A stretch of DNA of 64,000 nucleotides from Eledone cirrhosa (Eukaryota), in the NCBI GenBank assembly GCA_964016885.1, contig OZ024744.1:58590001-58654000 (forward strand). Reading direction: 5' to 3'. The position numbers and the translations under genes were made by a program. The notes below the pieces were generated by a model that was not told the origin of the DNA, searched no databases, and was given only the letters and a program-made list of their open reading frames with translations. Of the stretch, positions 1 through 64,000 are shown in pieces; the stretch's first letter is position 1; each line of letters opens with the position of its first letter.

Positions 1-690
1 TAGCCCCGATAATAAACACATTAAAAGCTATAGCAATGTGGAAGACACCCATGTACATAGTATGAAGAGTACTGGTGGAATATTCCAGTAAAAACCCCAA
101 TAAAATACAGGCATAACAGACCAGATATTATGATATGGGACAGGGAGAAGAAAACATGCACAGTAGTGGAAATTAGCTGCCCAGCAGATGCCAATATAAT
201 ATCAAAGATTAGTGAAAAGGAGAATATTTATGCAGAACTGATGAGAAATCTGCAGATACTCCACACTGATTACACCTTCAGATTTATGCCTGTGATTATT
301 GAGGCACTGGGGTATGTTAGTAACTGCCTCAATACAAATCTTGAGAAGCTAGGCTTCACAGGAACAGAAAGAACACAACGAGTTAGGAAATTACAAGTAC
401 AATCCATTAATGGAACAGTAAAAAATATGTAAAACATTCGAAACATTTTGCATCTAACAACTGCATATACACATGTACAGATGCAAAGCATATACACATG
501 CACACATACAACTCAAAACATACACATCCACACATACAATAACATCCATATCTACACATGCATGCATACATAATCTACCTAGTTGATGTTGTGTAAATTC
601 CAATGAGAGAGTCTTGTGTCTATGTTAGAAACCGACTCTCTCTTTATTGGGAAAAACTTTGTGAAATTATAAAACCAGAAGAACATACAT
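1..690 (+). mobile_element. 3' end of R4/Dong-like RLE non-LTR retrotransposon (degenerate), followed by (CATA)n
   Basis: Frame from 61 reads YEEYWWNIPVKTPIKYRHNRPDIMIWDREKKTCTVVEISCPAD, an RHN-RPD...E.S.P restriction-like endonuclease motif. Stop at 432, then 3' UTR, then (CATA)n from ~685. Confidence 0.85.
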
Positions 691-786
691 ATATACATAC
701 ATGCATGCATGCATACATACATACATACATACATACATACATACATACATACATACATACATACATACATACATACATACATACAT

Positions 787-19440: not shown

Positions 19441-19500
19441 ATATACATACATACATACCTACATACATACATACATACATACATACCTACATACATACAT

Positions 19501-19859
19501 GGTGGCTGCCAACTCGTTTTCGAGTACGGCCACTACTTTATATACATGTAGGAGAACCCCTACCGATGCGCTGAACGAGTGTGACTTTTTAGTCCAGCCA
19601 GCGACTTGAAAACTCTGGTACAAACACTACACTTGTGACAATTATTGACACAGTGCTAGGCCCATGGTACCATGTGACGACAAGTGCAGAGAGATCTCCA
19701 GATATAAAGCAATGCCTGTGCCGTGAAGCTTTTATAGTGAGCAAAGGCACTGCACAAAGCCAGTCCCACTCTCTTAACCAAGATGATATTTACCAAAAAG
19801 AAGAACAAGTCAACATCATTGGATACCATCAGGGTTGCAGTTGTTTTATCAGAGTTTTC
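19501..19859 (-). mobile_element. RTE-derived N1 element, 5'-truncated
   Basis: Matches 787-1145. (TACA)n on both sides. Confidence 0.8.
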
Positions 19860-31247: not shown

Positions 31248-31316
31248 GACACACATACATACATACATACATACATACATACATACATACATACATACAT
31301 ACATACATACATACAT

Positions 31317-31926
31317 GGTGGCTGCCAACTCGTTTTCGAGTACGGCCACTACTTTATATCCATGTAGGAGAACCCCTACCGATGCGCTGAACGAGTGTGA
31401 CTTTTTAGTCCAGCCAGCGACTTGAAAACTCTGGTACAAACACTACACTTGTGACAATTATTGACACATAGTGCTGGGCCCATGGTAACACGTGACGACA
31501 AGTGCAGAGAGATCTCCAGATATAAAGCAATGCCTGTGCCGTGAAGCTTTTATAGTGGGCAAAGGCACTGCACAAAGCCAGTCCCACTCTCTTAACCAAG
31601 ATGATATTTACCAAAAAGAAGAACAAGTCAACATCATTGGATATCATCAAGTTTGCAGGTGTTATATCAGAGTTTTCCTTCTCCTAAAATTCTGCCTTGA
31701 CAAAGGCTAAGGGGTCATCTCTCCCGGTGATTTTTGGATGGCCATTGACTCTTAAGAGCTCCTTTGCCCTTTTCCAGGTTTTGTTTTTAGTCCTGCAAGA
31801 TGTCCAAAGCCACCCTCCTCACCAAGAAACCTTGGTGGGGTTGCCAGTTTAGTCGCCAATGACCCGACTATGAGACAGGTTGTACTGGGATACATGTTAC
31901 CAGTAGCACCAACTGGTGACCTGACA
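31317..31926 (-). mobile_element. RTE-derived N1 element, full length
   Basis: Matches 787-1390. Tail at 31253-31316. Confidence 0.8.
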
Positions 31927-31997
31927 TATATACATATATATATACACACACACATACACACACACATATACATATATATATATATATATGTATATAC

Positions 31998-32936: not shown

Positions 32937-33146
32937 CACATATATACATATACACATACACACACATACACACATACATACATATACACATACATATATA
33001 TATATGGAGGCACATGGTTTAGTGGTTAGAGCATTGGCCTTGCAATCAAAAAGTTGTCAGTTCAACTCTCAGACATACATACATACATACATACATACAT
33101 ACATACATACATACATACATACATACATACGTACATACATACATAT

Positions 33147-33659
33147 GGTGGCTGCCAACTCGTTTTCTAGTACGGCCACTACTTTATATCCATGTAGGAG
33201 AACCCCTACCGATGCGCTGAACGAGTGTGACTTTTTAGTCCAGCCAGCGACTTGAAAACTCTGGTACAAACACTACACTTGTGACAATTATTGTCACATA
33301 GTGCTGGGCCCATGGTACCATGTGACGACAAGTGCAGAGAGATCTCCAGATATAAAGCAATGCCTGTGCCGTGAAGCTTTTATAGTGAGCAAAGGCACTG
33401 CACAAAGCCAGTCCCACTCTCTTAACCAAGATGATATTTACCAAAAAGAATAACATGTCAATATCATTGGATACCATCAGAGTTGCAGGTGTTATATCAG
33501 AGTTTTCCTTCTCCTAGAATTCTGCCTTGACAAAGGCTAGGAGGTCATCTCTCCCACTGATTTTGGATGGCCATTGACTCTTAAGAGCTCCCTTGGCCTT
33601 TGACAGGTTTTGTTTTTAGTCCTGCAGGATGTCCAAAGTCACCCTCCTCACCAAGAAAC
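33147..33659 (-). mobile_element. RTE-derived N1 element, 5'-truncated
   Basis: Matches 787-1292. (TACA)n on both sides. Confidence 0.8.
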
Positions 33660-33689
33660 ATACATACATACATACATACATACATACAG

Positions 33690-34143
33690 ACATTGGAAAA
33701 TCCTATTCAATATTCGAAGATAAAAGAAATGGACCAATTTATAGAGAAAGTTGTACATGGGTACCTGAGACGAAGCACACAGACCATAGAGGGAATAAAT
33801 CATTCAAAAAGCCTGGCATGGAGTTCCGACAAGTTTATAACATCCCACCTTGAAGGATATCTTTATGCAATATAGGAACAAGAAATCCTGACCAAATATC
33901 TGCTACACAAAAGAGGAGGGCCATCAGTGGACAATAAATGTAGGCTATGTAAAACAAAGTTCGAAGATGTTAGCCACATTGTTGCCAACTGTGAAAGAAT
34001 GTCGTCTCGTTACTGCCTTCCAATGAGACACCATGTGATAGCTAGAACCATCTGGAACGCACTTAGGAAAACAAAATTAAAAACAAATGAGGAGGAATAT
34101 GTTGAGATAGATGACACTAAAGAATACTGGTGGAACCTGAAAA
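33690..34143 (+). mobile_element. Internal fragment of R4/Dong-like RLE element
   Basis: Homologous to 35680-36135 (VHGYL, CRLC..HIV..C, EYWWNLK). Starts directly after (CATA)n. Confidence 0.85.
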
Positions 34144-34149
34144 TATATA

Positions 34150-34375
34150 CACATATACATATTTATATACATATTTACACACTTTTGGATGGCCGTTAAC
34201 TTTTATGAGTTCTTCCGGCCTTTGTCAGGTTTTGTTTTTGTCCTGCAGCGTGTCCAAAATCACCCTCCTCACCAAGTTAACTTGGTGGGGTTGCCAGTTT
34301 AGTCGCCGACGACCCAACCATACGACAGGTTTTACTGGGTTACATGTTACCAGTAGCACTCAAGAGTGACCCGAC
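34150..34375 (-). mobile_element. RTE-derived N2 element 5' end
   Basis: Matches 8245-8460. Confidence 0.65.
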
Positions 34376-34436
34376 ATACATACATACATACATACATACA
34401 TACATACATACATACATACATACATACATACATACA

Positions 34437-34468
<32 letters not shown>

Positions 34469-34489
34469 CATATATACATACATACTTAA

Positions 34490-36568
34490 CCTGTTCTTAC
34501 AGGGTGCCTTAACCTGTTCTTACATGATCACTGTGCTACCAACAACATCATAACACCTGAGCAGGCTGGTGGAAAGAGGGAGGTGAGGGGTTGCATAGAT
34601 CACCTACTAACTAATAAAATGATTCAAGAAAAAACAACAATCGCAGAAACATGACTGGACTATCAAAAACATGGCTGGACTATCAAAAAGCATTTGATAG
34701 TGTACCTCATGGGGGTATTGTTAAGGCTTTACAGTTAGCCAAAGTCCCACAACCACTGGTAGCTGCTGTTGAACGTCTGACCAAGAACTGGTACACCAAT
34801 TTGATCCTTAGAGGTGAGAAGGAGCAGGTTAAGACTGATAAGATACATTACCAGAAGGGCATCTTTCAGGGTGATAGCTTGTCAGTGCTACTCTTCGTTC
34901 TCTCACTAAATCCACTATCTTACCTACTCAGGAAACAAGGTGGACAAAGAAGTGGGTCCAGAAGTATCTCCCATCTTTTCTTTGTTGATGACCTGAAGTT
35001 GTATGGGCCAAATATCAATGACATTAAGAAACAATTGGACCTCATTACACAATTTTCAACAGACATCAAAATGAAATTTGGGGAGTCCAAGTGTGCATAT
35101 TTGGCAGTAAAACGTGGAAGAGCTGTGCCCTCCTCTAGAAATCTAGAGATGAACGGCTTGACAATACAACCTCTAGAGTCAGGTGACAACTACAGATATC
35201 TTGGACAGGATGAGAATGTCAGATATGATGGACCCATAAATAAGGAGAGAACCAGAACTGAATACTTCAGAAGAGTAAAGAAAATATGGTCATCAGAACT
35301 GTCAGCGTACAACAAATACATTACCCACAATACTTATGCTGTACCAATACTAACGCCAACATTTGGCTTGCTGAACTGGTCATTGCAAGAACTAAGTGAG
35401 ATGGATGTTAGAACTCACAAACTTCTCAGTGTTACTGGGAACTTTAATATCAATGGTGATGTGGATAGGCTATACTTCTCACGCAAGGAAGGTGGCCGGG
35501 GTCTAAAATCCATATTAACATCATATGAGACCCGGATAGTAACACTGAAGCAACATCTTCAACAGAGGAAAAAGGTTGGCAACCATCTTGCCCAGGTTTA
35601 TGAGCATGAAAAAAATATATCATTATGATCTGGAGGAGAGATATGGAATAAAGCCTGATATAAATCTCTCACCCAGAGAAATCGGAAGATCCTATTCAAT
35701 GTTCAAACAAGATGAAAAAATTGACCAATTTACAGAAAAAGTTGTGCATGGATACTTGAGGCATAAAACACAGACCATAGAGGGGATAAACCACTCAAAA
35801 AGCCTGGCATGGAGTTCCGACAAGTTTATGACATCACACCTTCAGGGATATCTCAATGCAATACAGGAACAAGAACTCCCTACCAAATATCTGCTGCACA
35901 AAAGAGGAGGGCCATCAGCTGACAATAAATGTAGGCTATGTAAAACAAAAATCGAGGATGTAAGCCACATTGTTGCTAGCTGCGAAAGAATGTCATCTCG
36001 CTACTACCTCCCCATGAGACACGATGGGATAGCTAGCACCATCTGTAACGCACTTTGGAAAACAAAATTAACAACAAACGAGGAAGAATATATTGAGACA
36101 GGTGGCACTAAAGAATACTGGTGGAATCTGAAAATAAAAACTGCCACCAAATTAAAGCACAACCGGCCTGATATTGTTGTTTGGGACCACACATTGAAAA
36201 CGTGTTCTGTTGTGGAGATCAGCTGCCCACTTGATGTAAACGTTGTCGGAAAAATACAGGAGAAGGAGGACATCTACGGACCATTGATGAGGAGTTTACA
36301 AATCCAGTATCCAAGATACACCTTTAGCTTCATACCCATCATTATTGGAGCTACGGGTTATATACCAACCCGCTTGGACCAAAGTATGACTGTACTTGGA
36401 TTTGCGGACAAAAAGCGCAGCTCCCTAATTCATAGTCTACAAATGGCTGCGATAGCTGGCACCTTCAAAATTTGCAAAACATTCTTGCGATTCAAGGGAT
36501 GACAATTTCTTTTCTTTTACAACCTTGCCGGTCAAAAAAATATACGCGAAATTAAGATAAAGAGATAA
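34490..36568 (+). mobile_element. R4/Dong-like RLE non-LTR retrotransposon, 5'-truncated, flanked by (CATA)n
   Basis: RT 34651-35628 (WLDYQKAFDSVPH, GIFQGDSLS, LFFVDD, GGRGL). Frameshift ~35612. CCHC finger CRLC..HIVASC, then RHD, KHNRPDIVV and EISCP to the stop at 36502. Confidence 0.9.
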
Positions 36569-36574
36569 CATACA

Positions 36575-36824
36575 TGATGGCTGCCAACTCGTTTTCGAGT
36601 ACGGCCACTACTTTATATCCATATAGGAGAACCCCTATCGATGCACTGAACGAGTGTGACTTTTTAGTCCAGCCAGCGACTTGAAAACTCTGGTACAAAC
36701 ACTACACTTGTGACAATTATTGACACAGTGCTGGGCCCATGGTACCATGTGATGACAAGTGCAGAGAGATCCCCAGATATAAAGCAATGCCTGTGCCGTG
36801 AAACTTTTATAGTGAGCAAAGGCA
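36575..36824 (-). mobile_element. RTE-derived N1 element, 3' fragment
   Basis: Matches 787-1037. Encodes [25 protein letters not shown]. Confidence 0.8.
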
Positions 36825-36897
36825 CATACATACATACATACATACATACATACATACATACATACATACATACATACATACATACATACATACATAC

Positions 36898-38378
36898 GTA
36901 TGGATCTCATTACCCAATTTTCTACAGACACTGGGAGGAAATTTGGTGAATCATTTTTGACAATAAAATTTTTGACAATAAAATGTGGAAAAGTTGTGTC
37001 CTCCTCTGGAAATCTAAAAATGAACAGTCTGACAATACAACCTCTAAAGTGAGGTGACAACTACAATTACCTTGGACAGGATAAGACTGTCAGATATGAT
37101 GGACCTATAAATAAGGAGAGAACTAGGAATGAACAGTCTGACAACCTCTACAGTGAGGTGACAACTACAGATACCTTGGACAGGATAAGACTGTCAGATA
37201 TGATGGACCTATAAATAAGGAGAGAACTAGGAATGAACAGTCTGACAACCTCTACAGTGAGGTGACAACTACAGATACCTTGGACAGGATAAGACTGTCA
37301 GATATGATGGACCTATAAATAAGGAGAGAACTAGGAATGAACAGTCTGACAATACAACCTCTACAGTGAGGTGACAACTACAATTACCTTGGACAGGATA
37401 AGACTGTCAGATATGATGGACCTATAAATAAGGAGAGAACTAGGAATGAACAGTCTGACAACCTCTACAGTGAGGTGACAACTACAGATACCTTGGACAG
37501 GATAAGACTGTCAGATATGATGGACCTATAAATAAGGAGAGAACTAGGAATGAACAGTCTGACAATACAACCTCTACAGTGAGGTGACAACTACAATTAC
37601 CTTGGACAGGATAAGACTGTCAGATATGATGGACCTATAAATAAGGAGAGAACTAGGAATGAACAGTCTGACAATACAACCTCTACAGTGAGGTGACAAC
37701 TACAATTACCTTGGACAGGATAAGACTGTCAGATATGATGGACCTATAAATAAGGAGAGAACTAGGAATGAACAGTCTGACAACCTCTACAGTGAGGTGA
37801 CAACTACAATTACCTTGGACAGGATAAGACTGTCAGATATGATGGACCTATAAATAAGGAGAGAACTAGGAATGAACAGTCTGACAACCTCTACAGTGAG
37901 GTGACAACTACAGATACCTTGGACAGGATAAGACTGTCAGATATGATGGACCTATAAATAAGGAGAGAACTAGGAATGAACAGTCTGACAATACAACCTC
38001 TACAGTGAGGTGACAACTACAATTACCTTGGACAGGATAAGACTGTCAGATATGATGGACCTATAAATAAGGAGAGAACTAGGAATGAACAGTCTGACAA
38101 CCTCTACAGTGAGGTGACAACTACAGATACCTTGGACAGGATAAGACTGTCAGATATGATGGACCTATAAATAAGGAGAGAACCAAGAATGTAAACCTCA
38201 GGAGAGTAAAGGTATTATGGTCTTCAGAACTCTCGACACAAAACAAAGACATTGCCCATAATATGTTTAGTGTACCCACAATAAAACTAACATTTGACCT
38301 GAACTGGTCATTGCAAAAAATGAACAAGATGGACTTGAAAGCTGATCAGTGTTACTGGAAACTTTAACATCAATGGAG
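36898..38378 (+). mobile_element. Degenerate R4/Dong-like RT fragment containing an internal tandem array
   Basis: 36900-37020 matches 35035-35150. 38180-38378 matches 35248-35457. Confidence 0.8.
37019..38187 (+). repeat. Minisatellite, 11 units of 104/109 bp
   Basis: Unit starts at 37019, 37128, 37232, 37336, 37445, 37549, 37658, 37767, 37871, 37975 and 38084. Confidence 0.95.
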
Positions 38379-43599: not shown

Positions 43600-43782
43600 G
43601 CTGTATTTAATTTCGATCCTTAAGTTCTCAAAACAAATCTCGCTGGTGTCAACTATCTCTTATGAAATAGATAAAATAAAGTACCAGTCAAGTACTATGG
43701 TCGATTTAATCGACTATAGTACTCCTCTCAAATGTGAAAGCTTGTGTCTATGTTCGAATATATTATTATTATTATTATTATT
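43600..43782 (+). mobile_element. Degenerate SINE whose (ATT)7 tail precedes the LINE cluster
   Basis: gataaaataaagtaccagtcaagtact..ggtcgatttaatcgact..cttgtgtcta, then (ATT)7 at 43762-43782. Confidence 0.6.
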
Positions 43783-43997
43783 GAATGCCATGGTTGACGG
43801 AGGCTCGGCTCTGTAAGGTATAGTAATTTTTAACCGTTAAAACAATTGTAAATTATTTAAAACTTGAACCAAATTGTTGATAAAGACACCCTCCTCCTCG
43901 TGAGAGGGGTCTTTCTGTCCGTTATTTGGCCCTTCGGGGTTAAATAATCAGTTATTGGGGTTTTGTACCCAAAATTTCATTTTAAACAAAAAACAAC

Positions 43998-46095
43998 ATG
44001 GCTACGAAAAAGAAATTTCATACGTCACTCCCACTCATTCCGTCTTCTTCTTCCTCAATCATCACTACAGCAGAGAGAAGATTGTCTCTCTCCCTCCCTT
44101 CTTTAAATGTGTCTCTCTCCCTCCCTTCTCTTTCGCAAGTGACGAAAGAAAAGAAAAGTCTCGTGCAAAGCGTGCAAGGTTTCTCCACGACGACGACGAC
44201 AGCGACGAAACAGGTGTGCGGGAAATACGAAAACCCAGTTCATTCGTCTGACGTCAGGAATAATAGCAGTAGCAGCCGTAATAACAACAGCAACAGTGAC
44301 AATGAAAACAACAGTAGCAGCCGCAACAGCATCACCAGCAGCATAAACAACAACAGCATTAGCAGCAGCAACACCAACAACAACCACAGCAACAGCGGCG
44401 GAGGCAGTAGTCGTAGTACCTGCAGCAACAACAAAAGTACCAGCAGCTCTGACGACAACAACAACAGCAGAGAAAAACCAATCTCATTTGCAGGTATTGC
44501 GAAAAACTTGGAAACAATCCTCATAACAAATGAGGAATTAGAGGAAGCGAAGAAGATGGTGACAAAGAACGGACACCGAGCAATCTGCAAGGCAGCGAAA
44601 AATGTTTTCGAAACCCAAGAGCACTGTACGGTCACGTACCGTACAGTAAGTAACAAAATCCCGTAGGGTGGAAAGAGCCACAGAGGCCCAAATACAAAAA
44701 GCCTTGGGGTCTGTGTGGCAGCGGAAAACGCACATCACCCGAGGCAAAAAATATGCCACCGTAGACGTACTTTTTGCCACACCCCAGGAGGCAAAGGCCC
44801 AATCAGTAGTTACCCTAAGGAGCGAGGAAATGGTGTTGGTGCCCTCCTACTGTGGGCAAAAAATTGTGAGGGTCAAACTGACCCACGTCCCCCCCGGAAT
44901 GACCCCTTCTTGGCTGGCCGCGTCTGTCCTCGTCGGAATCGAGGACAAAACAACTGTACTGCAAGTACAGAAAAAAGTAAGAGAAGATTGGGTCGGCTCC
45001 TCCATTGAGATGCTAATCCAAACCAACCAGGAGTGCATCGAAGCTATCCCGGATGTGATAGACTTCGATAACGGCACTCAACTGCCCGTAAGTGTTGAGG
45101 GCAAACGCCCGAAATGCTTTCGCTGTGGATCGAAGACTCACCTCAGGGCCTTCTGCAACGAGAAGACCCTGAGAAAGGAGAAAACCCCCCTCCTTCCGAA
45201 TCCGGCTCCACGGCTACCAGCAACAGGACAAGCGGCAACCAGGAACGATAGGCCCGTGGCACCCATACCCACTCCACGGAAATCAAAAACAGCAGCAGCA
45301 GTGGAAATACTAACAACAACAACAGCAATACCAAATGCAGCCGCAACAGAGACTCCAGTGCAAACATCACCAACAACAACAAGTGAAAGAGTGGAGTTGG
45401 TACCCCTCCCCGACCTCACAGAATCAGACATCGAGTGTGAGGTGGGAGAGAGATGGCAAAAGGTCGTAAGAAGGCACAAACGCAGAAGCAGCGCATCGTC
45501 GCCTTTGAAAAGGGAGGAAAGAAATGAGAAAAGGGTAAAGTCTACTGCAAAGAGACCCACAGCAGCAACAACACCAACACCATCACCACCCACACTAGCG
45601 CCACCATCACCACCGGCGACAACCCCACCGCCAACAACACCTTCAACACCACCACCACAAGCACCAACATCGCAAACACAACAACAAAACACACACACCC
45701 AGCAACAACGACAAGAAAATAGCAGAACCACACCCCACCCCCAGAAAAACAAATGCACGGCAATAAATACACACAACAAGAAACTAATGACTTACATAAT
45801 TGAACACACAGACATTTCACAACAGGACTACATAATACCAGCACCAATCAAAACGCCAACTAACATAAGACTGCTAAAAATAGCACAGAAACAATACACA
45901 AATATTAAAACGAAATTCCCCAACGCAGTTGGTGATTTCAGGGACCTAGGAGGAACCATCAATCGAAGAGTATACTCAGACATTCTCTTAGAAGAGCCGA
46001 CGACCAGCCGAAGGGACGATTCAACGGTCCCTTCACCAGACGATCAAGTGAAAAGGGATGTAAAAACCATCCCTCCTCTACGAAAAGTACGGTAA
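43998..46095 (+). pseudogene. ORF1 of Tx1-like copy A, frameshifted
   Basis: ORFs 43998-44666 and 44668-46095 together match ORF1 of copy B. Confidence 0.85.
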
Positions 46096-46130
46096 GTGGT
46101 CTTTCCCATCTTTTCCACTCTATTTTAAAC

Positions 46131-49100
46131 ATGACCTCACTCAGAATAGGCAGCATAAATGCGCGTGGCTTGGGGTCGTCATGGAAGCAAGGTCACCTGC
46201 TCAACGACCTCAGGTCACTAAACATAGATGTAGTGGCCATCAGCGAGACCAGAATCTCCGAAACACGGGCCTTCGCACCGATCTTCGGCGGCTACGATGT
46301 GTACGCATCTCCCAGCCGTCCTGGATCCGGTGGAGGAGTTGCTGTACTTTTTCGGAGAGGTTTGGATCTCGCCATACGGGCCATCTTCCTGGACCCAGAG
46401 GGTAAGCTGGTGGTGCTGGACGTGACCAGCGGAGACGGGCAAGCTTTCAGGCTAGTGGCCGTCTATGCCCCGACAGGAGCAGGGCGGCCTGATTTCTTCC
46501 GGCGTCTGGAGACCTTTCTTGGAACGTCGCGCTCTTTAGTGTTAGTGGGCGACTGGAACGGGATCTTAGATGCACGCTGGGACTGTGTGGGATTAGCGGA
46601 TAGGGGTGGAGGGTGCAAGAGCCTCACCAACCTGCTCAGGCGTTTTGAACTGTCTGACAGGTACCGATTGGATTTCCCGAATGTGCCAATGTGGACTTGG
46701 ACAAACCGCATAGGGTCATCCAGATCATATCTAGATAGAGTATTTTGTAGGGAAATAGATAGGTCTAGCATAGGCTGTCCACAATTCAAGATAGTCAGCT
46801 ACACGGACCACAAATTCGTGACCTGTGTGCTTGACTTAGATAGGCTTCATAGACGAGGACCCGGCTACTGGAAGCTAAACGCGTCCTTACCAGCGCGCAA
46901 GGCCTACAGAGACCGGATTAGCGAACTAGTTAAGCGGGCGTTGACGGGGGCCATCGTCAACAACAAGTGGTGGTTTGCTCTGAAAAGAGCGATTAGAATA
47001 GATCGATTAGGTTTAGTAAGGCTTTAGCAATAGAGAAAAATAGAGCAGAGGGAGAACTAGTTAGAAAATTAGACGAGGCGCTTAGCAAAGGCATTGCGAC
47101 CGACGTGCTTGCGGCGAAATTGGCCCTTGACCAATTCTTCAATGCAAAGCACGAAGGCTGCGTTGTCAGAGCTAGGGTGCGTGCTCTCAGACACGAGGGG
47201 ACGAAAGCCGTTCAATGGGCCCGAGTGGCGGAGGCGCGTCGTGGCAACAAAACCACGATCCGGTCTTTGGTGGACCACGACGGGCGCATGCTACTCGATC
47301 CCGGGCAAATGTGTGAAGCTTTTCAGCGACACTTCGCTCAGCTGTTCGGGGGCAGCGGGGGGCCGGGTAGAGGGATGGACTTTAGTGTCTACCTCGACGG
47401 ACTGCCGCGGCTCTCGGCCACTGAGGCGAAGTGTTGCGAAAAGCCGATAACAGCCGCTGAAGTACGGGAGGCAATGACTGGCTGCACAAGGGGTAAATCG
47501 CCTGGTTTGGATGGTCTGCCCTATGAACTTTACGTACAGATGCCAGACTTGTTCGGAGGCCTCTTGGCGGACGTCTACTGCAACTGGCAACAGAACGGGA
47601 GAATTCCCAGTTCTGTGAGCCGAGGAGCGGTGGCACTGCTGAGAAAGGATCCGAACAAGGGGGATAACATAGACAATTTCCGGCCCATAACTCTGCTAAA
47701 CACAGAGTTTAAGATTTTGGCCAAGGTGCTAGCAAAGAGGTTGGCGCTTGTCGTTGGTGGTCTGGTGGGAGAGGCGCAGACATGCGCCATTCCCGACAGA
47801 TCCATCCACGACAACCTCCACCTCATGCGATACATCGTAGAGAGGGTAGCTAGGGAACCTGGCACGGGTGGGTCCTTGATCAATTTAGATCAGTCGAAAG
47901 CTTTCGATAGGGTCGACCATCGTTACCTAGGCAGTCCTGAGGGCGGCTGGCTTTGGGCCCGTCTTCAGAGGCTGGATCGCTGCCATGCACAGCGACATCT
48001 GCTCTGTGGTGAGAGTGAACGGTCACCTGTCGGAACCGTTCAACATCATGCGCTCGGTCCGCCAAGGATGTCCCCTCTCGTCCCTCTTGTACGTATTGAC
48101 TCTCGAGCCATTACTGCACAAACTGGAGACGTTGAGGGGAGTCCCGCGCGAACTAGGATGCGGAAGATCCGTGTCAGCATATGCGGACGATGTCACCGTA
48201 GTGGTGTCGAACGCCAAACACATCGAGGCGATCGGCACTACACTAAGAGAATACGAAGCGGTGACAGGAGCAATGATCAACCAGGAAAAGTCAGTGGGCC
48301 TGCAGCTCGGCACCTGGAGAGGCAGGTCCATGCCGTCCAACAGCGTCGTCGGGCGCTGGACGGACGGACCGGTTAAATTGCTAGGGGTCTGGTTCGGTCC
48401 GGACCTCCAGACGGACAAAAACTGGGACGAGGTGACGAGCAGGGTGGCTTCTCTCACCCAGAAATGGGCGGAGAGGAAGCTATCCCTGAAAGGTCGAGCG
48501 GAGGTGGCTAACGCGTACATCGCGTCTGTCATCTGCTACCGCCTAACCGTCGTACCTTGTCCTAAGCCTCGCCTGACTGCGCTGGAGCGTTTGCTCTTTC
48601 GCTTTTTGTGGAAGGGGCGTGCTCCGATGGTCAGGCGGTCCATCTGTTGTCAACACCCGCTACGTGGTGGGCTGGGCATGCCGTGGCTGATGATGCGCAG
48701 GCACGCGCTCAGGCTACGACATCTCCACCTCTTCCTCGACGGTGATCAGGTGTGGTCGCCGTTTGCTAGACGCGTTTTTCCCCAGCTCGTTTCCTTGACG
48801 GAGCTGCAGTCCTGGGTCAAGCGAAGACCGAGAGGGTGCGCCTGGAGACTGGAATGTCTTCAGGCGCTCACAGCCCTCGACCAATCGGGCAATGTGATCG
48901 GTGGAAACTCCACCTCGGCGTTCTATAGAGGATTAGTGGAGGGGAAGAGCGACGACGTACTTGGGGAAACTCTAGGCGTCGACGAAAATCAACTAGCCAA
49001 TCTCTTCGGAAGAACTTTCGGGCCAGGGCCTATGGACAACTTCCAGAAATCTCTGGCCTGGCAGTGCTACCGAGGAGCCTTGCCAGTTCGGGATAAACTC

Positions 49101-49547
49101 TACAGGCATGGAGGTGCCGTCAGCCGGGCATGTCCGAGATGCGCGCAGGGCGACGAAACCGTCCTGCACGCACTCGTCCAGTGTCCGAAAATTGCTGACT
49201 TGTGGGTTTATGTCGAACACCTGCTGTCGCGTTTAGGACGGATCCAGCTATCATCTGAGTCTATCGTGAGGATTGCCCCGCCCTCCTCCTTTAGCCGGGA
49301 AGGGCAGGCAGTTTTTATCTGTCTGGTGGCCATGGCGAAAGAGATAGTATGGTGGACACGTTTGAAAGGGCTGAAGACGAGCACTTACCTCTTCGGTGAT
49401 GCTCTGATTGACTTTTTCAAATTTCATTTGAAAAGGAAAATCAGAGTAGAGAAGGAAGTGCTCTCTTCCCAGCATTTTGTTGAAAGATGGGTGAGAGAAG
49501 CAAGAATGGCCCGAGTGAATGGGCCGACTCTGAGTATATATCTGTAA
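46131..49547 (+). pseudogene. ORF2 (APE-RT) of Tx1-like copy A, two frameshifts
   Basis: ORFs 46131-47027, 47105-48376 and 47985-49547 tile ORF2 of copy B. Confidence 0.88.
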
Positions 49548-50040
49548 ACTAAAGGTGGAAAACTGGGAGAGGGCACTTGCCTTGGTGGTCAGGGTCATTG
49601 TGGCTTTTCACTGGGCTTTCTCCACAAATGTCCCTCCGAAGTCTCCCCCCTATTGGGGAATTTTTCATTGTTATTTTCATTGTTATTTTTGTTACATCCT
49701 CTGTTTTTGTTTTTTTACACGCAGAAATGCCCATTTGTACCGTCCTGCATTGTCCTGCACTGTCCTTAATGTCTACTTTATGTAAACCCTTGTGGTTAAT
49801 AAAGAAATCATTATTATTATTATTATTGAATGCCATGGTTGACGGAGGCTCGGCTCTGTAAGGTATAGTAATTTTTAACCCTTAAAACAATTGTAAATTG
49901 TTTAAAACTTGAACCAAATTGTTGATAAAGACACCCTCCTCCTCGTGAGAGGGGTCTTTCTGTCCGTTATTTGGCCCTTCGGGGTTAAATAATCAGTTAT
50001 TGGGGTTTTGTACCCAAAATTTCATTTTAAACAAAAAAAC

Positions 50041-52140
50041 ATGGCTACCAAAAAAAAAAAATTTCATACGTCACTCCCACTCATTCCGTCTTCTTCTTCC
50101 TCAATCATCACTACAGGAGAGAGAAGATTGTCTCTCTCCCTCCCTTCTTTAAATGTGTCTCTCTCCCTACCTTCTCTTTCGCAAGCGACGAAAGAAAAGA
50201 AAAGTCTCGTGCAAAGCGTGCAAGGTTTCTCCACGACGACGACGACAGCGACGAAACAGGTGTGCGGGAAATACGAAAACCCAGTTCATTCGTCTGACGT
50301 CAGGAATAATAGCAGTAGCAGCCGTAATAACAACAGCAACAGTGACAATGAAAACAACAGTAGCAGCCGCAACAGCATCACCAGCAGCATAAACAACAAC
50401 AGCATTAGCAGCAGCAACACCAACAACAACCACAGCAACAGCGGCGGAGGCAGTAGTCGTAGTACCTGCAGCAACAACAAAAGTACCAGCAGCTCTGACG
50501 ACAACAACAACAGCAGAGAAAAACCAATCTCATTTGCAGGTATTGCGAAAAACCTGGAAACAATCCTCATAACAAATGAGGAATTAGAGGAAGCGAAGAA
50601 GATGGTGACAAAGAACGGACACCGAGCAATCTGCAAGGCAGCGAAAAATTTTTTCGAAACCCAAGAGCACTGTACGGTCACGTACCGTACAGTAAGTACA
50701 AAATCCCGTAGGGTGGAAAGAGCCACAGAGGCCCAAATACAAAAAGCCTTGGGGTCTGTGTGGCAGAGGAAAACGCACATCACCCGAGGCAAAAAATACG
50801 CCACCGTAGACGTACTTTTTGCCACACCCCAGGAGGCAAAGGCCCAATCAGTAGTGACCCTAAGGAGCGAGGAAATGGTGTTGGTGCCCTCCTACTGCGG
50901 GCAAAAAATTGTGAGGATCAAACTGACCCACGTCCCCCCCGGAATGACCCCTTCTTGGCTGGCCGCGTCTGTCCTCGTCGGAATCGAGGACAAAACAACT
51001 GTACTGCAAGTACAGAAAAAAGTAAGAGAAGATTGGGTCGGCTCCTCCATTGAGATGCTAATCCAAACCAACCAGGAGTGCATCGAAGCTATCCCGGATG
51101 TGATAGACTTCGATAACGGCACTCAACTGCCCATAAGTGTTGAGGGCAAACGCCCGAAATGCTTTCGCTGTGGATCGAAGACTCACCTCAGGGCCTTCTG
51201 CAACGAGAAGACCCTGAGAAAGGAGAAAACCCCCCTCCTCCCGAATCCGGTTCCACGGCTACCAGCAACAGGACAAGCGGCAACCAGGAACGATAGGTCC
51301 GTGGCACCCATACCCACTCCACGGAAATCAAAGACAGCAGCAGCAGTGGAAATATTAACAACAACAACAGCAATACCAAATGCAGCTGCAACAGAGACTC
51401 CAGTGCAAACATCACCAACAACAACAAGTGAAAGAGTGGAGCTGGTACCCCTCCCCGACCTTACAGAATCAGACATGGAGTGTGAGGTGGGAGAGGGATG
51501 GCAAAAGGTCTCAAGAAGGCACAAACGCAGAAGCAGCGCATCGTCGCCTTTGAAAAGGGAGGCAAGAAATGAGAAAAGGGTAAAGTCTACTGCAAAGAGA
51601 CCCACAGCAGCAACACCACCAACACCATCACCACCCACACCAGCACCACCATCACCACCGGCGACAACCCCACCGCCAACAACACCTTCAACACCACCAC
51701 CACAAGCACCAACATCGCAAACACAACAACAAAACACACACACCCAGCAACAACGACAAGAAAATAGCAGAACCACACCCCACCCCCAGAAAAACAAATG
51801 CACGGCAATAAACACACACAACAAGAAACTAATGACTTACATAATTGAACACACAGACATTTCACAACAGGACTACATAATACCAGCACCAATCAAAACG
51901 CCAACTAACATAAGACTGCTAAAAATAGCACAGAAACAATACACAAACATTAAAACGAAATTTCCCAACGCAGTTGGTGATTTCAGGGACCTAGGAGGAA
52001 CCATTAATCGAAGAGTATATTCAGACATTCTCTTAGAAGAGCCGACGACCAGCCGAAGGGACGATTCAACGGTCCCTTCACCAGACGATCAAGTGAAAAG
52101 GGATGTAAAAACCATCCCTCCTCTACCAAAAATACGGTAA
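50041..52140 (+). CDS. LINE ORF1 gag-like nucleic-acid-binding protein (699 aa)
   Basis: ATG at 50041. Zinc knuckle CFRCGSKTHLRAFC (CX2CX4HX4C). S/N-rich and P/T-rich low-complexity regions. Confidence 0.9.
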   Translation: MATKKKKFHTSLPLIPSSSSSIITTGERRLSLSLPSLNVSLSLPSLSQATKEKKSLVQSVQGFSTTTTTATKQVCGKYENPVHSSDVRNNSSSSRNNNSNSDNENNSSSRNSITSSINNNSISSSNTNNNHSNSGGGSSRSTCSNNKSTSSSDDNNNSREKPISFAGIAKNLETILITNEELEEAKKMVTKNGHRAICKAAKNFFETQEHCTVTYRTVSTKSRRVERATEAQIQKALGSVWQRKTHITRGKKYATVDVLFATPQEAKAQSVVTLRSEEMVLVPSYCGQKIVRIKLTHVPPGMTPSWLAASVLVGIEDKTTVLQVQKKVREDWVGSSIEMLIQTNQECIEAIPDVIDFDNGTQLPISVEGKRPKCFRCGSKTHLRAFCNEKTLRKEKTPLLPNPVPRLPATGQAATRNDRSVAPIPTPRKSKTAAAVEILTTTTAIPNAAATETPVQTSPTTTSERVELVPLPDLTESDMECEVGEGWQKVSRRHKRRSSASSPLKREARNEKRVKSTAKRPTAATPPTPSPPTPAPPSPPATTPPPTTPSTPPPQAPTSQTQQQNTHTQQQRQENSRTTPHPQKNKCTAINTHNKKLMTYIIEHTDISQQDYIIPAPIKTPTNIRLLKIAQKQYTNIKTKFPNAVGDFRDLGGTINRRVYSDILLEEPTTSRRDDSTVPSPDDQVKRDVKTIPPLPKIR

Positions 52141-52175
52141 GTGGTCTTTCCCATCTTTTCCACTCTATTTTAAAC

Positions 52176-55100
52176 ATGACCTCACTCAGAATAGGCAGCA
52201 TAAATGCGCGTGGCTTGGGGTCGTCATGGAAGCAGGGTCACCTGCTCAACGACCTCAGGTCACTAAACATAGATGTAGTGGCCATCAGCGAGACCAGAAT
52301 CTCCGAAGCACGGGCCTTCGCACCGATCTTCGGCGGCTACGATGTGTACGCATCTCCCAGCCGTCCTGGATCCGGTGGAGGAGTTGCTGTACTTTTTCGG
52401 AGAGGTTTGGATCTCGCCATACGGGCCATCTTCCTGGACCCAGAGGGTAAGCTGGTGGTGCTGGACGTGACCAGCGGAGACGGGCAAGCTTTCAGGCTAG
52501 TGGCCGTCTATGCCCCGACAGGAGCAGGGCGGCCTGATTTCTTCCGGCGTCTGGAGACCTTTCTTGGAACGTCCCGCTCTTTAGTGTTAGTGGGCGACTG
52601 GAACGGGATCTTAGATGCACGCTGGGACTGTGTGGGATTAGCGGATAGGGGTGGAGGGTGCAAGAGCCTCACCAACCTGCTCAGGCGTTTTGAACTGTCT
52701 GACAGGTACCGATTGGATTTCCCGAATGTGCCAATGTGGACTTGGACAAACCGCATAGGGTCATCCAGATCATATCTAGATAGAGTATTTTGTAGGGAAA
52801 TAGATAGGTCTAGCATAGGCTGTCCACAATTCAAGATAGTCAGCTACACGGACCACAAATTCGTGATCTGTGTGCTTGACTTAGATAGGCTTCATAGACG
52901 AGGACCCGGCTACTGGAAGCTAAACGCGTCCTTACCAGCGCGCAAGGCCTACAGAGACCGGATTAGCGAACTAGTTAAGCGGGCGTTGACGGGGGCCATC
53001 GTCAACAACAAGTGGTGGTTTGCTCTGAAAAGAGCGATTAGAATAGAATCGATTAGGTTTAGTAAGGCTTTAGCAATAGAGAAAAATAGAGCAGAGGGAG
53101 AACTAGTTAGAAAATTAGACGAGGCGCTTAGCAAAGGCATTGCGACCGACGTGCTTGCGGCGAAATTGGCCCTTGACCAATTCTTCAATGCAAAGCACGA
53201 AGGCTGCGTTGTCAGAGCTAGGGTGCGTGCTCTCAGACACGAGGGGACGAAAGCCGTTCAATGGGCCCGAGTGGCGGAGGCGCGTCGTGGCAACAAAGCC
53301 ACGATCCGGTCTTTGGTGGACCACGACGGGCGCATGCTACTCGATCCCGGGCAAATGTGTGAAACTTTTCAGCGACACTTCGCTCAGCTGTTCGGGGGCA
53401 GCGGGGGGCCGGGTAGAGGGATGGACTTTAGTGTCTACCTCGACGGGCTGCCGCGGCTCTCGGCCACTGAGGCGAGGTGTTGCGAAAAGCCGATAACAGC
53501 CGCTGAAGTACGGGAGGCAATGACTGGCTGCACAAGGGGTAAATCGCCTGGTTTGGATGGTCTGCCCTATGAACTTTACGTACAGATGCCAGACTTGTTC
53601 GGAGGCCTCTTGGCGGACGTCTACTGCAACTGGCAACAGAACGGGAGAATTCCCAGTTCTGTGAGCCGAGGAGCGGTGGCACTGCTGAGAAAGGATCCGA
53701 ACAAGGGGGATAACATAGACAATTTCCGGCCCATAACTCTGCTAAACACAGAGTTTAAGATTTTGGCCAAGGTGCTAGCAAAGAGGTTGGCGCTTGTCGT
53801 TGGTGGTCTGGTGGGAGAGGCGCAGACATGCGCCATTCCCGACAGATCCATCCACGACAACCTCCACCTCATGCGATACATCGTAGAGAGGGTAGCTAGG
53901 GAACCTGGCACGGGTGGGTCCTTGATCAATTTAGATCAGTCGAAAGCTTTCGATAGGGTCGACCATCGTTACCTAGCGGCAGTCCTGAGGGCGGCTGGCT
54001 TTGGGCCCGTCTTCAGAGGCTGGATCGCTGCCATGCACAGCGACATCTGCTCTGTGGTGAGAGTGAACGGTCACCTGTCGGAACCGTTCAACATCATGCG
54101 CTCGGTCCGCCAAGGATGTCCCCTCTCGTCCCTCTTGTACGTATTGACTCTCGAGCCATTACTGCACAAACTGGAGACGTTGAGGGGAGTCCCGCGCGAA
54201 CTAGGATGCGGAAGATCCGTGTCAGCATATGCGGACGATGTCACCGTAGTGGTGTCGAACGCCAAACACATCGAGGCGATCGGCACTACACTAAGAGAAT
54301 ACGAAGCGGTGACAGGAGCAATGATCAACCAGGAAAAGTCAGTGGGCCTGCAGCTCGGCACCTGGAGAGGCAGGTCCATGCCGTCCAACAGCGTCGTCGG
54401 GCGCTGGACGGACGGACCGGTTAAATTGCTAGGGGTCTGGTTCGGTCCGGACCTCCAGACGGACAAAAACTGGGACGAGGTGACGAGCAGGGTGGCTTCT
54501 CTCACCCAGAAATGGGCGGAGAGGAAGCTATCCCTGAAAGGTCGAGCGGAGGTGGCTAACGCGTACATCGCGTCTGTCATCTGCTACCGCCTAACCGTCG
54601 TACCTTGTCCTAAGCCTCGCCTGACTGCGCTGGAGCGTTTGCTCTTTCGCTTTTTGTGGAAGGGACGTGCTCCGATGGTCAGGCGGTCCATCTGTTGTCA
54701 ACACCCGCTACGTGGAGGGCTGGGCATGCCGTGGCTGATGATGCGCAGGCACGCGCTCAGGCTACGACATCTCCACCTCTTCCTCGACGGTGATCAGGTG
54801 TGGTCGCCGTTTGCTAGACGCGTTTTTCCCCAGCTCGTTTCCTTGACGGAGCTGCAGTCCTGGGTCAAGCGAAGACCGAGAGGGAGCGCCTGGAGACTGG
54901 AATGTCTTCAGGCGCTCACAGCCCTCGACCAATCGGGCAATGTGATCGGTGGAAACTCCACCTCGGCGTTTTATAGAGGATTAGTGGAGGGGAAGAGCGA
55001 CGACGTACTTGGGGAAACTCTAGGCGTCGACGAAAATCAACTAGCCAATCTCTTCGGAAGAACTTTCGGGCCAGGGCCTATGGACAACTTCCAGAAATCT

Positions 55101-55595: not shown

Positions 55596-55855
55596 ACTAA
55601 AGGTGGAAAACTGGGAGAGGGCACTTGCCTTGGTGGTCAGGGTCATTGTGGCTTTTTACTGGGCTTTCTCCACAAATGTCCCTCCGAAGTCTCCCCCCTA
55701 TTGGGGAATTTTTCATTGTTATTTTCATTGTTATTTTTGTTACATCCTCTGTTTTTGTTTTTTTACACGCAGAAATGCCCATTTGTACCGTCCTGCATTG
55801 TCCTGCACTGTCCTTAATGTCTACTTTATGTAAACCCTTGTGGTTAATAAAGAAA

Positions 55856-55911
<56 letters not shown>

Positions 55912-55913
<2 letters not shown>

Positions 55914-57844
55914 AGTTGCATTTATCTTGCTTTATGTTCATACGAGTTATCAGCAAGTCACAACCAGTGACCTCAAGAGACAACAAGGTCCGCCATGTTC
56001 AAGAAAGAACATACAGACACATGCATCTTTAGGTGTTTAGACTTGTGATGACCTTATATTGACAGAATCTTCCTTAGTATATGGGCAGTTCCCATTAGTA
56101 CTATCTTTTGTATTTCTCCTATACGCGGGTTTCCTGGGATTTGCGATAAGTAATCATTAGACCCCTTAGGTATCATTCCTGGAGCGCCTACAACCACTGG
56201 TATTGTTTTAGTTCTCAATTTCCACATTTTTCCAATTTCTATCTCCAGGTCCTTATACTTGCTCAATTTTTCAAATGTTTTTGTAGATACATTCTTGTCT
56301 ATTGGAACGGAAATATCAATTAGCAGGCATACCCTCTTTTTAAAGTCCTTCAGTATTATATCAGGTCTATTTGCATCTATTTTTCGGTCTGTTTGGATGC
56401 TAAAGTTCCACAAGATTGAGATGTGATCTTTTTCAAGTATGGGAGGTGGTTGATGCTCCCACCAATTCTTTGGATGGGGCAGGTCAAAATGCTTACACAT
56501 TATCCAATGTATGTATTGTGCAGCTCTGTCATGCCTGTTTAGGTATTCGGTTGGAGCTATAGTACTGCACATTGAAATTATATGATCAATGGTCACTTGT
56601 TGTTTTTTACATACACGGCATAATGGGTTGCATCCATTTTTTATTATGTTGGCTTGATAATTTTTTGTTGGCAGAAACTGATCTTGTGCTGATATAATCA
56701 GTCCCTCAGTCTCCGATTTCAGTCCAGAGGATGCAAACCACTGATGGGTTAAAGTTTTGTCAACATCAGGATTGTTAGCTCTTTCTGGGTATTTTCCATA
56801 CAGAGGCTTTTCTTGCCATTTCTTAGCCAGTTTCTGTAGCAGTTCTTCCTTCGCAGTTACTTTTACCTGCTTTGCTTTTTCTGTGTTTTCCATTTCAGCA
56901 GTAAATGGGACTTCTGAAATTTGTAGTCCATTACTGTATCTTTGTGCATCTTTTGTAATGGAATATGATCTTTTGATGCTTTCGTGTTTCAAAACGAGTT
57001 TGATCATCCAATCATGTGATTCCCTTAGATATGTAGATAATCCAATTGTTGCAGTTTTCAACGCAATGTCTAACTGGACTAACCCACGTCCTCCTTCTTT
57101 CCTAGGGAGATATATTCTATCTATATCTGCCTTAGGGTGATGCATTCTGTGCATGGTTAAGAATTTTCGAATTTTTGTATCGAGCCTACGGATCTCTGTG
57201 CTTGACCAGTTGATGACATTGTAACTGTAGGTTATTACTGGTATGGCAAGCGTGTTTATGGCATCGATCCTATTCCTTGCATTCAATTCCGTTCTTAAGA
57301 TTGCTCTTACTCTGCGGTAACATTCCTTCCTTATCCTTTCCCTCATTGTCGAGTGCTTGATTCCGTCTCCTTCACAAACACCTAGATATTTGTAAGTTTT
57401 TCCTTGATCAAGTTCTCTTATCACGTTCCCCCGATCAAGATTAATGTCTGAACTCTTCAGCAGCTTTCCTCTGGTGAACGTTGCTTTGGCGCATTTATCT
57501 AGTCCAAACTCCATTTTAATGTCATCACTGAACTGCTCCACAGTGGATAATAGCCCTTGCAATTGTTCATCATTTTTTGCAAATAGTTTCAGGTCATCCA
57601 TGTAGAACAAGTGATTAATGGTTTTGTCATAGACTCTATATCCATGTTTTGTTTCATTGAGCATTTTACTTAATGGTATAAGTGCGATGCAGAATAAAAG
57701 CGGTGATAAAGAGTCACCCTGAAAAATTCCACAATTAATATTAACTTCTCCAGCTTCCAGTGATTTTGTTTCACTATTCAAAAGGAGTGTCGTTTTCCAT
57801 GTCTTCATACTGAATCACAAAAACCTCCTGACAACGGGAGATAT
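55912..57844 (-). mobile_element. R4/Dong-like RLE retrotransposon, 5'-truncated, flanked by (TAA)n
   Basis: Contains the open frame 56054-57808. (ATT)18 at 55858-55911 and (TTA)n at 57845-57870. Confidence 0.92.
56054..57808 (-). CDS. RT C-terminal half + CCHC + restriction-like endonuclease (N-terminally truncated)
   Basis: GIFQGDSLSP, LFYMDD, GGRGL, CRVC..HIISMC, RHD, ANRPDIIL, LIDISVP, KLSKYKDL. Confidence 0.85.
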   Translation of the reverse strand: MKTWKTTLLLNSETKSLEAGEVNINCGIFQGDSLSPLLFCIALIPLSKMLNETKHGYRVYDKTINHLFYMDDLKLFAKNDEQLQGLLSTVEQFSDDIKMEFGLDKCAKATFTRGKLLKSSDINLDRGNVIRELDQGKTYKYLGVCEGDGIKHSTMRERIRKECYRRVRAILRTELNARNRIDAINTLAIPVITYSYNVINWSSTEIRRLDTKIRKFLTMHRMHHPKADIDRIYLPRKEGGRGLVQLDIALKTATIGLSTYLRESHDWMIKLVLKHESIKRSYSITKDAQRYSNGLQISEVPFTAEMENTEKAKQVKVTAKEELLQKLAKKWQEKPLYGKYPERANNPDVDKTLTHQWFASSGLKSETEGLIISAQDQFLPTKNYQANIIKNGCNPLCRVCKKQQVTIDHIISMCSTIAPTEYLNRHDRAAQYIHWIMCKHFDLPHPKNWWEHQPPPILEKDHISILWNFSIQTDRKIDANRPDIILKDFKKRVCLLIDISVPIDKNVSTKTFEKLSKYKDLEIEIGKMWKLRTKTIPVVVGAPGMIPKGSNDYLSQIPGNPRIGEIQKIVLMGTAHILRKILSI

Positions 57845-57870: not shown

Positions 57871-58908
57871 TTTCGCCGTTTGCTAGACACGTCTTTCCCC
57901 AGCTCGTTTCCTTGACGGAGCTGCAGTCCTGGGTCAAGCGAAGACCGAGAGGGAGCGCTTGGAGACTGGAATGTCTTCAGGCGCTCACAGCCCTCGACCA
58001 ATCGGGCAATGTGATCGGTAGAAACTCCACCTTGGCGTTCTATAGAAGATTAGTGGAGGGGAAGAGCGACGACGTACTTGGAGAAACTCTAGGCGTCGAC
58101 GAAAATCAACTAGCCAATCTCTTCGGACGGACTTTCGGGCCGGGGCCTATGGACAACTTCCAGAAATCCCTGGCCTGGCAGTGCTACCGGGGAGCTTTAC
58201 CAGTTCGGGATAAACTCTACAGGCATGGAGGTGCCGTCAGCCGGGCATGTCCGAGATGCGTGCAGGGCGACGAAACCGTCCTGCACGCACTCGTCCAGTA
58301 TCCGAGCATTGCTGACTTGTGGGTTTATGTCGAACACCTGCTGTCACGTGTAGGACGGATCCAGCTATCAGCTGAGTCCATCGTGAGCATTGCCCCGCCC
58401 TCTTCCTTTAGCCGGGAAGGGCAGGCAGTTTTTATCTGTCTGGTGGCCATGGCGAAAGAGATAGTATGGTGGACACGTTTGAAAGGGCTGAAGACGAGCA
58501 CTTACCTCCTCGGTGATGCCCTGATTAACTTTTTCAAATTTCATCTGAAAAGGAAAATCAGGGTAGAGAGGGAAGTGCTCTCTTCCCACCATTTTGTTGA
58601 AAGATGGGTGAGAGAAGCAAGTATGGCCCGAGTGAATGGGCCTACTCTGAGTATGTGTCTGTAAATTAAAGGTGGAAAACTGGGAGAGGGCACTTGCCCT
58701 GGTGGTCAGGGTCACTGTGGTCTTTTAATGGGCTTTCTCCACAAATGTCCCTCGGAAGTCTCCCCCCTATTGGGGAATTTTTCTTTGTTATTTCATTACA
58801 TCCTCTGTTTTTTTTTACACGCAGAAATGCCCATTTGTACCGTCCTGTATTGTCCTGTACTGTCCTTAATGTCTACTTTATGTAAACCCTTGTGGTTAAT
58901 AAAAAAAA

Positions 58909-58909
<1 letters not shown>
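57871..58909 (+). mobile_element. Tx1-like copy C, 5'-truncated (~1 kb)
   Basis: ORF2 C-terminus 57912-58664 and 3' UTR. (ATT)n on both sides. Confidence 0.92.
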
Positions 58910-58953
<44 letters not shown>

Positions 58954-58954
<1 letters not shown>

Positions 58955-62980: not shown

Positions 62981-63009
62981 TTATTATTATTATTATTATT
63001 GTTGTTATT

Positions 63010-64000
63010 CCTTGAATCTCAGTCATTGATGTTGGTTAACTGGAAAGTCCGTTGGATTGAATATCAAGCCACTACCTGCAGCCTCAGATATTCAGGACGT
63101 ATCGGAGGGTTCTTGCTGTTCCAAGCAAGCATGCCTTTTGAAGCGTTCCAAAAAGCGTGAAGGGGCCGATTTTCTTTAACCATCCCTGGAAACTTTTGGA
63201 GATAGTCCCCAGTGCGCCTATGACAATCGGGATCACTTTGACTTCATGGCAGTTCCAAATCTTTTCACCTCCCACTTTAGGTCCTGGTATCGGTTAATTT
63301 TCTCCCTCTCCTTCTCTTGCACTCTCGTGTCGAACGGGCAGGCCACATCCACAATCAGACACGATCTTTTTTCTTTGTCCACAACCACCAGGTCAGGTCT
63401 ATTGTGTTCCAGTTTTTTGTCCGTCTGTATCCTAAAATCCCACAGCACCTTCACCTGATTGTTCTCCATCACCGCCTCTGGCCTATGCTCATACCATTTC
63501 TCAGAATGTGGTAAATTGTTTACTTTGCACAGGTGCCAGTGGATCACCCTGCCCATCACATCGTGTCTCCAGCCCTTATAGTGGGTCTGGGCTAGGTGTT
63601 TACACTCGGACACAATGTGAGCCACAGTCTCCTCTCTCTCTCCACAGATCCTGCACAGTGGGCTAGCCTCCTCCTTGTAGATATGGTGCTTCAACCACTT
63701 CGTTTTGAGGGCCTGCTCCTGCGCAGCCATTAGCATTCCTTCTGTAGCCTTTTTGAGGTCTCCTCTTCTCAACCAGTTCCATGTCTGTGGATCTCTAAAT
63801 TCAGTTTTCTCAAAGAAGGTACTATGAAGGGATTTTCCCTTAAGGCTGCTCTTCCTCCTTGATGTTATTTCCTCCTTGGACATCCCCTGGCCTACTGTCC
63901 CCTCCTTCAGTACAGTTCTGAGCATTGGCTCCTTACTATAGGTCACGTATTTGTATAGGTTGTTTTTCTCCATCTGAACACAGTCCTCTATGCTGATAAG
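63010..64000 (-). mobile_element. R4/Dong-like RLE retrotransposon 3' part, continues beyond the window
   Basis: CRICG..ETVAHIVSEC, WRHD, HNRPDLVV, IVDVACP. Frameshift near 63260. Confidence 0.9.

Follow-up and report, generated by a model that had tools for sequence, protein, structure and literature searches.

Two families of retrotransposons, here called A and B, are joined to (CATA)n microsatellites in a 64,000-nucleotide stretch of the Eledone cirrhosa genome (contig OZ024744.1, positions 58590001-58654000; hereafter the window), and this association is real and genome-wide. The host genome, of 3.0 Gb, is rich in microsatellites. Both families are single open reading frame (ORF) elements of R4/Dong-type build with a restriction-like endonuclease (RLE), which sit one way round in (CATA)n, probably insert there by target-primed reverse transcription and belong to an old clade that probably targets C(A/T)TA tetranucleotide repeats. 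The architecture, the presence of CATA at both junctions, the fixed strand, the microhomology at 5' ends, the young intact copies and the clade were observed directly.

Junctions across the genome

A junction was scored as positive when a perfect 8-nt run of the repeat unit lay inside a span of about 22 nt at that junction, and the background was taken from 119,760 22-mers of 60 evenly spaced 10-kb stretches (600 kb). The copies scored were best matches to each family: all 40 for family A, 30 of 40 for family B and, for two TAA-flanked RLE families of the same genome used as controls, 30 of 40 for family C and 20 of 40 for family D. To these was added a flank-blind sample, found with a distant-relative protein as query (150 scored matches among 41,453 first-look candidates; 30 loci, all of family A). 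Over the best-match A and B copies and the flank-blind A copies, (CATA)n was present at 89 of 99 3' ends (34/40 in family A, 27/30 in family B and 28/29 complete ends in the flank-blind set) and at 79 of 92 5' ends (33/39, 24/29 and 22/24 visible ends, respectively), far above the 0.79% of background 22-mers that contain it. The opposite reading of the repeat, (TATG)n, accounts for 1.3% of the background and was seen at none of the scored junctions in these sets. The 3' ends of the best-match A and B copies carried CATA in 61 of 70 cases and TAA in none. Family C had TAA at 30/30 3' ends and 9/13 5' ends, family D at 18/20 and 3/5 (48/50 3' ends for both together), and CATA was found in neither. 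The first-pass annotation, made from the letters of the window, had let its proposal of a (CATA)n-associated family depend on enrichment beyond background and on a fixed orientation relative to the repeat; both were found.

The points of 5' truncation are scattered along the element, and most of them still adjoin CATA. Array and element overlap by at least 3 nt at 12 of the 28 scorable truncated 5' junctions, against 2.8% expected. Because such variable truncation points adjoin CATA with an excess of microhomology, the repeat is the target and not only a tail, and an origin of the repeat as a tail alone is ruled out.

Contigs from two other sequencing runs repeat the junctions (X4 at a loose 3' end, X8 at a truncated internal 5' end), which argues against an assembly artefact. 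The wider idea of a passive or technical association, with arrays that simply belong to an RTE-derived repeat described below or with an assembly that joins repeats at microsatellites, could appeal to the window itself, where all five of the cited arrays also touch that repeat, on the opposite strand. Beyond the array, however, RTE or its derived repeat lies at only 18 of 70 3' sides and 17 of 70 5' sides, and the junctions are exact to the base and recur in the independent runs and in unrelated metagenome contigs. This reading is therefore contradicted and largely refuted, and we give it hardly any credence. Another A or B piece stands beyond the array at 12 3' sides and 11 5' sides (n = 70 each). 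As the RTE-derived repeat is met at so few sides, A and B stack in shared arrays independently of it.

The opposite-strand repeat and the origin of the arrays

The RTE-derived repeat is a non-coding, non-autonomous family of about 600 bp, 5'-truncated at variable points and with simple repeat on both sides. It makes up about 1% of the sampled genome, and a second variant about 0.9%. Its 3' end, read on the TATG strand, consists of a C2H2-like remnant, a hairpin and then (ATGT)n. An autonomous element beside locus L054, in which we recognize what we take to be RTE-type reverse transcriptase (RT) motifs, has a 3' end that matches the repeat. Across the unbiased 600 kb the repeat is tied to CATA more loosely, with CATA at 3/10 tail sides and 6/10 head sides, the rest being mainly (TA)n. 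Of the 28 CATA arrays in this sample, 10 border the RTE-derived repeat or RTE, only 2 border A or B, and 17 stand clear of all the tested elements. The formation of microsatellites at the 3' ends of RTE elements has been reported (PMC2887409), and it is likely that these elements and their non-autonomous copies supply or enlarge part of the arrays in which A and B insert.

That report could also lend itself to the view that A and B build the arrays themselves, by inserting at CATA-like seeds or anywhere with a (CATA)n tail, after which target-site duplication and slippage would enlarge both sides; some 3' arrays of just 8-12 nt (L001, L018, L042) would fit. We regard this as improbable, since long arrays are already present on the 5' side of very young full-length copies, the median simple-repeat length is 43 nt on the 5' side and 37 nt on the 3' side, and most unbiased arrays touch no tested element, A and B included.

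Structure and age of families A and B

Full-length copies of family A measure 4.0-4.2 kb and have one ORF, which is intact over 1167-1169 aa in 10 of 17 copies (chosen for long open frames). The 1169-aa ORF contains CRLC-x8-H-x4-C, RHD and HNRPD..EISCP..K, which we take to be the knuckle and RLE motifs. Pfam matched RVT_1 and zf-RVT in this protein, and the nearest solved structures are those of R2 proteins. An apurinic/apyrimidinic endonuclease (APE) domain was not found in the ORF. The N-terminal 288 aa gave no Pfam match, and no zinc-finger pattern (CCHH or CCHC) was found there or across the alignment; N-terminal zinc fingers are typical of NeSL/HERO-related elements. The R4/Dong-like architecture that had been proposed from the window thus stands, with a single ORF, RT, CCHC knuckle and RLE. 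Recovery of a full-length copy also allowed the N-terminal domain to be inspected. It was modeled as three helices at 22-74 with a predicted local distance difference test (pLDDT) score >89, and its best matches, all weak, were DNA-binding domains of the Myb, SANT or trihelix type, from Zeste, GT-1, LUX and TRF1 (Z 5-6, best 6.0; root-mean-square deviation 2.2-4.7; 52-64 aligned).

Ten family A bodies with a 5' end, all preceded by CATA, differ pairwise by a median of 0.42% (minimum 0.20%). Since copies are intact and nearly identical, recent or current activity of family A is suggested. Eight intact copies show 297 synonymous and 518 non-synonymous codon differences, and are too young for this ratio to inform. 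Family B is about 4.1 kb at full length, and the copies examined were all broken. Concerning RNA features, an Rfam scan of five full-length loci returned only chance microRNA-like matches to repeats and no ribozyme, and folding of the element 5' ends gave no consistent signal (z -0.3 to -2.3).

Relatives and phylogeny

The proteins of A and B are 46% identical to each other and only 29-33% identical to those of the TAA families over the RT-RLE region. The window pieces had been taken for a single family; they are instead two, and blastn finds no match between the copy at 1-684 and the family A sequence of the window. Among the 120 homologues listed for the family A protein, the closest named relative is a hypothetical protein of Argonauta hians (62%). 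Of 78 metagenome loci, five (L143-L147) are 47-50% identical to family A and the others 28-42%. Intact L144 has (CATA)n at both ends and intact L147 has (CTTA)n at both ends; L146 has (CTTA)n at its 3' end and shares the last stretch of the 3' untranslated region (UTR) with L147, and (CTTA)n precedes the start of L143. A single host may have supplied all the CTTA contigs. Of 21 distant loci, most of those whose 3' end is visible continue there into (TAA)n, and one continues into (CAA)n. L171, a termite-type relative in the TAA clade, ends in (CAA)n and not in (TAA)n.

Families A and B group with L143-L147 in a clade with a Shimodaira-Hasegawa (SH) support of 100 in a 120-row FastTree tree and with 100/100 ultrafast bootstrap (UFBoot) and SH-like approximate likelihood ratio (SH-aLRT) support in a 38-row IQ-TREE tree, apart from the TAA-flanked rows across a fully supported branch. 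The trees hold unnamed relatives and are rooted at the midpoint; no named Dong, R4 or Rex6 sequence was among the 120 homologues listed. Because A, B and the CATA and CTTA relatives share one clade, targeting of a tetranucleotide is likely to be old, and a recent switch confined to octopuses is ruled out, since metagenome relatives also occupy (CATA)n or (CTTA)n. The first-pass annotation had seen here a sub-lineage that switched its target. The separation from the TAA families agrees with this, but A and B as sisters are rejected (approximately unbiased test, p=0.002), B leaning to the CTTA group (91/90), and both lie inside the older clade. A direction from TAA to the tetranucleotide is left unsupported, as the tree has no outgroup root.

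Insertion mechanism and target recognition

By analogy with R2 and from the junction patterns, the most likely course of insertion would be as follows. The N-terminal Myb/SANT-like domain and the RLE would bind the array, and the RLE would nick the TATG strand, in the simplest case after the unit TATG, because the 3' ends join the element directly to CATA (to CTTA in the relatives). Reverse transcription from the nick would copy the 3' end of the RNA, and the end of the cDNA would then pair with 1-5 nt of microhomologous sequence in the upstream array. An occasional abortive jump before annealing would duplicate a few bases of the element.

Targeting might instead depend on pairing between RNA and DNA. 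A read-through (CAUA)n tail would anneal to the nicked TATG strand, the nuclease being only loosely specific for AT/CA-rich DNA, and the element would stay in CATA by inheriting its own flank. The 3' ends that pass straight into the repeat, the strong 5' microhomology, which implies that annealing matters, the copies found in (CA)n or TA-rich tracts and the arrival of the RTE-derived repeat in similar arrays with an unrelated nuclease all agree with such pairing. Yet family A and the TAA families never cross at their 3' ends in the samples, although the genome is full of both repeats; the class of target follows the protein phylogeny across about 50% amino-acid divergence; and the register with C first is constant for CATA and CTTA. 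We find RNA pairing, the main alternative, unlikely. Recognition of the array by the protein can be carried further, tentatively, to the possibility that an old and widespread RLE clade reads four-base microsatellites by protein contact, that a few residues in the N-terminal arm and recognition helix would decide between CATA and CTTA, and that an active octopod member parasitizes arrays seeded by RTE on the opposite strand. The third helix reads LRDQA in the CTTA elements, LNEQA in family A, LNERA in L144 and LRQQA in family B, differences that offer a mere lead on target choice.

Several observations weigh against insertion of A and B by protein-guided targeting of C(A/T)TA. The best-match samples lean toward young copies; the unbiased 600 kb held only 2 A and 2 B copies, and of their three visible 3' ends two carried CATA; an old B copy among them is flanked by a (CA)-like sequence on the 3' side and by TATG on the 5' side. 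For a few copies (L068, L075, L039) the surrounding tract is (CA)n or TA-rich. Target-site duplications are unreadable inside arrays, and 31 of the 59 junctions at truncated 5' ends, which lacked a perfect 8-nt array precisely at the join, were excluded from the microhomology count. Outside this genome, support comes from a single contig with CATA and three with CTTA; L145 has no visible array, and array flanks were seen in the clade for A, B, L143, L144, L146 and L147. Foldseek returned no match at E<0.001 with the N-terminal model, which leaves the Myb-like call weak when taken alone.

Layout of the window

The features of the window are given in Table 1. All RLE pieces lie on the CATA-reading strand, as had been noticed from the letters alone, family A spanning 33688-38376 and family B 1-684. 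The reported starts directly after (CATA)n recur at 33688 and at about 36899-36901, within a base or two, and the 3' ends before CATA are seen at 36565, followed by ACATACAT, and in the 1-684 copy, followed by its array. The start near 34490 does adjoin the array, but not across a gap of about 20 bp: the 15 bp at 34487-34501 are a duplicate of element sequence, which makes the junction at 34487 direct, and the copy continues from 34502. A motif EYWWN..HNRPD..EISCP had been read as common to the pieces; it is whole in the 34502 and 1-684 copies and not in the other two, since the 33688 piece is interrupted at 34145, following EYWWNLK, and the 36901 piece stops short of the motif. The TAA-flanked families do differ in this motif, with ILWN..RPD..DISVP in family C and VLWD..RPD..DVACP in family D.

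Table 1. Features of the window relevant to families A and B, with the control families.
Feature	Positions	Strand	Remarks
Family B copy, 3' part (RLE domain + 3' UTR)	1..684	+	96% to family B reference positions 3404-4084; starts ~695 bp before the window, after CATACATACG (locus L036)
(CATA)n array	683..786	+	Between family B 3' end and tail of RTE-derived repeat
RTE-derived non-coding repeat (~600 bp family), 5'-truncated, TATG strand	33146..33658	-	
(CATA)7 array	33659..33688	+	
Family A-related fragment, CCHC knuckle to EYWWNLK	33688..34145	+	5'-truncated, without 3' end; 87.8% identity to intact family A copy L253 positions 3315-3774
Diverged RTE-derived repeat remnant	34146..34374	-	5' part + internal TA/CA-rich tract
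(CATA)n array	34375..34486	+	~28 units
Main family A copy: RT, CCHC knuckle, RLE, short 3' UTR	34487..36565	+	5'-truncated, frameshifted; 34502-36565 94.8% identical to L253 positions 2134-4217; frames 34618-35625 and 35549-36499; stop codon 36500-36502
8-nt ACATACAT	36568..36575	+	Between family A 3' end and RTE-derived repeat
RTE-derived repeat, 3' 250 bp only	36576..36824	-	
(CATA)18 array	36825..36896	+	
Old family A-related RT fragment (78-80%)	36899..38376	+	Without 3' end; mostly a 104-109-bp RT segment amplified ~11 times in tandem, 37019-38191
Control: TAA-flanked RLE family C	55913..57830	-	
Control: TAA-flanked RLE family D	63008..64000	-	Runs past window end
600-bp RTE-derived non-autonomous repeat, copies noted	785-1392, 1481-1842, 5249-6035, 19490-19858, 31314-31990, 33146-33658, 36576-36824		TATG strand

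The piece at 36901-38376 was also considered as a third family and rejected, as the search gave one 85% paralogue and otherwise ordinary A copies. The paralogue (L329), situated some 950 kb from it on the contig, has the same tandem amplification and shows no clean CATA junction.

Elsewhere in the window, 43762-55875 and 57873-62698 hold two 99%-identical 6-kb APE-RT elements in tandem, presumably L1/Tx1-like, together with shorter relatives and (TTA)n between them. In these arrays they run against families C and D, which follow the TAA strand, much as opposing elements share the CATA arrays. Families C and D are also close together in two distant random stretches (L292, L293), as in the window, which suggests shared TAA arrays or a composite unit. 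At 62670-63290, a 311-bp 3' end of family D occurs twice, head to tail, the two being separated by (TAA)n. Finally, ORFs with RT and GIY-YIG, which we assume to be Penelope-like, were found at 11791-12970 of the window and at 1902-5176 of locus L036, one long frame lying just upstream of the window.

Comparison with known systems

Dong elements of the R4 clade (Bombyx Dong, DongAg and the snail DongBg) are described as targeting (TAA)n, with oriented insertion in the microsatellite (PMC7998251, PMC3812793). They have a single ORF with RT and RLE and an N-terminal SANT/Myb-like domain free of zinc fingers (PMC7998251), a description that the weakly matched, putative domain of family A would fit, but A and B sit in (CATA)n and relatives of theirs in (CTTA)n. 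Families C and D of this genome behave like Dong. Nematode R4 inserts in ribosomal DNA, whereas the flanks of A and B are microsatellite and no rRNA match was found in five full-length loci. Waldo elements of the R1 clade (WaldoAg1, WaldoAg2, WaldoFs1) are reported to target ACAY repeats, including ACAT, which equals CATA (PMC3812793), and ACAT arrays stand at both junctions of A and B; however, Waldo carries an APE endonuclease, while the nuclease of A and B is a C-terminal RLE, with APE absent. The shared target is thus reached via different nucleases. Togen inserts in (TG)n, and HERO includes some microsatellite-specific families (PMC4640811); these are likewise RLE elements with microsatellite targets, but NeSL/HERO-related and with another target unit.

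Among molluscs, R4-Dong is described as almost confined to cephalopods (PMC10294476), and five Dong-R4 families with 1129 recently active insertions are reported in Octopus vulgaris (PMC13282606). A and B probably correspond to some of them; the covered text of that account holds no target analysis. The covered parts of PMC13586686, PMC3124438 and PMC7650587 hold nothing further on a (CATA)n target, and in the literature searched, Repbase and supplements aside, no CATA- or CTTA-targeting RLE element was found described. Microsatellite targeting is a known habit, here with a target not found described for RLE elements.

How RLE retrotransposons change their target is an open question that has been studied almost solely in R2. 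Intact, nearly identical CATA copies, intact CATA and CTTA relatives and TAA families of the same genome provide a panel for domain swaps and for tests of protein recognition against RNA pairing. CATA microsatellite markers call for caution in these animals, given their repetitive flanks. Moreover, the junctions of A and B show the insertion site of a large and probably active group of long interspersed nuclear elements in cephalopods.

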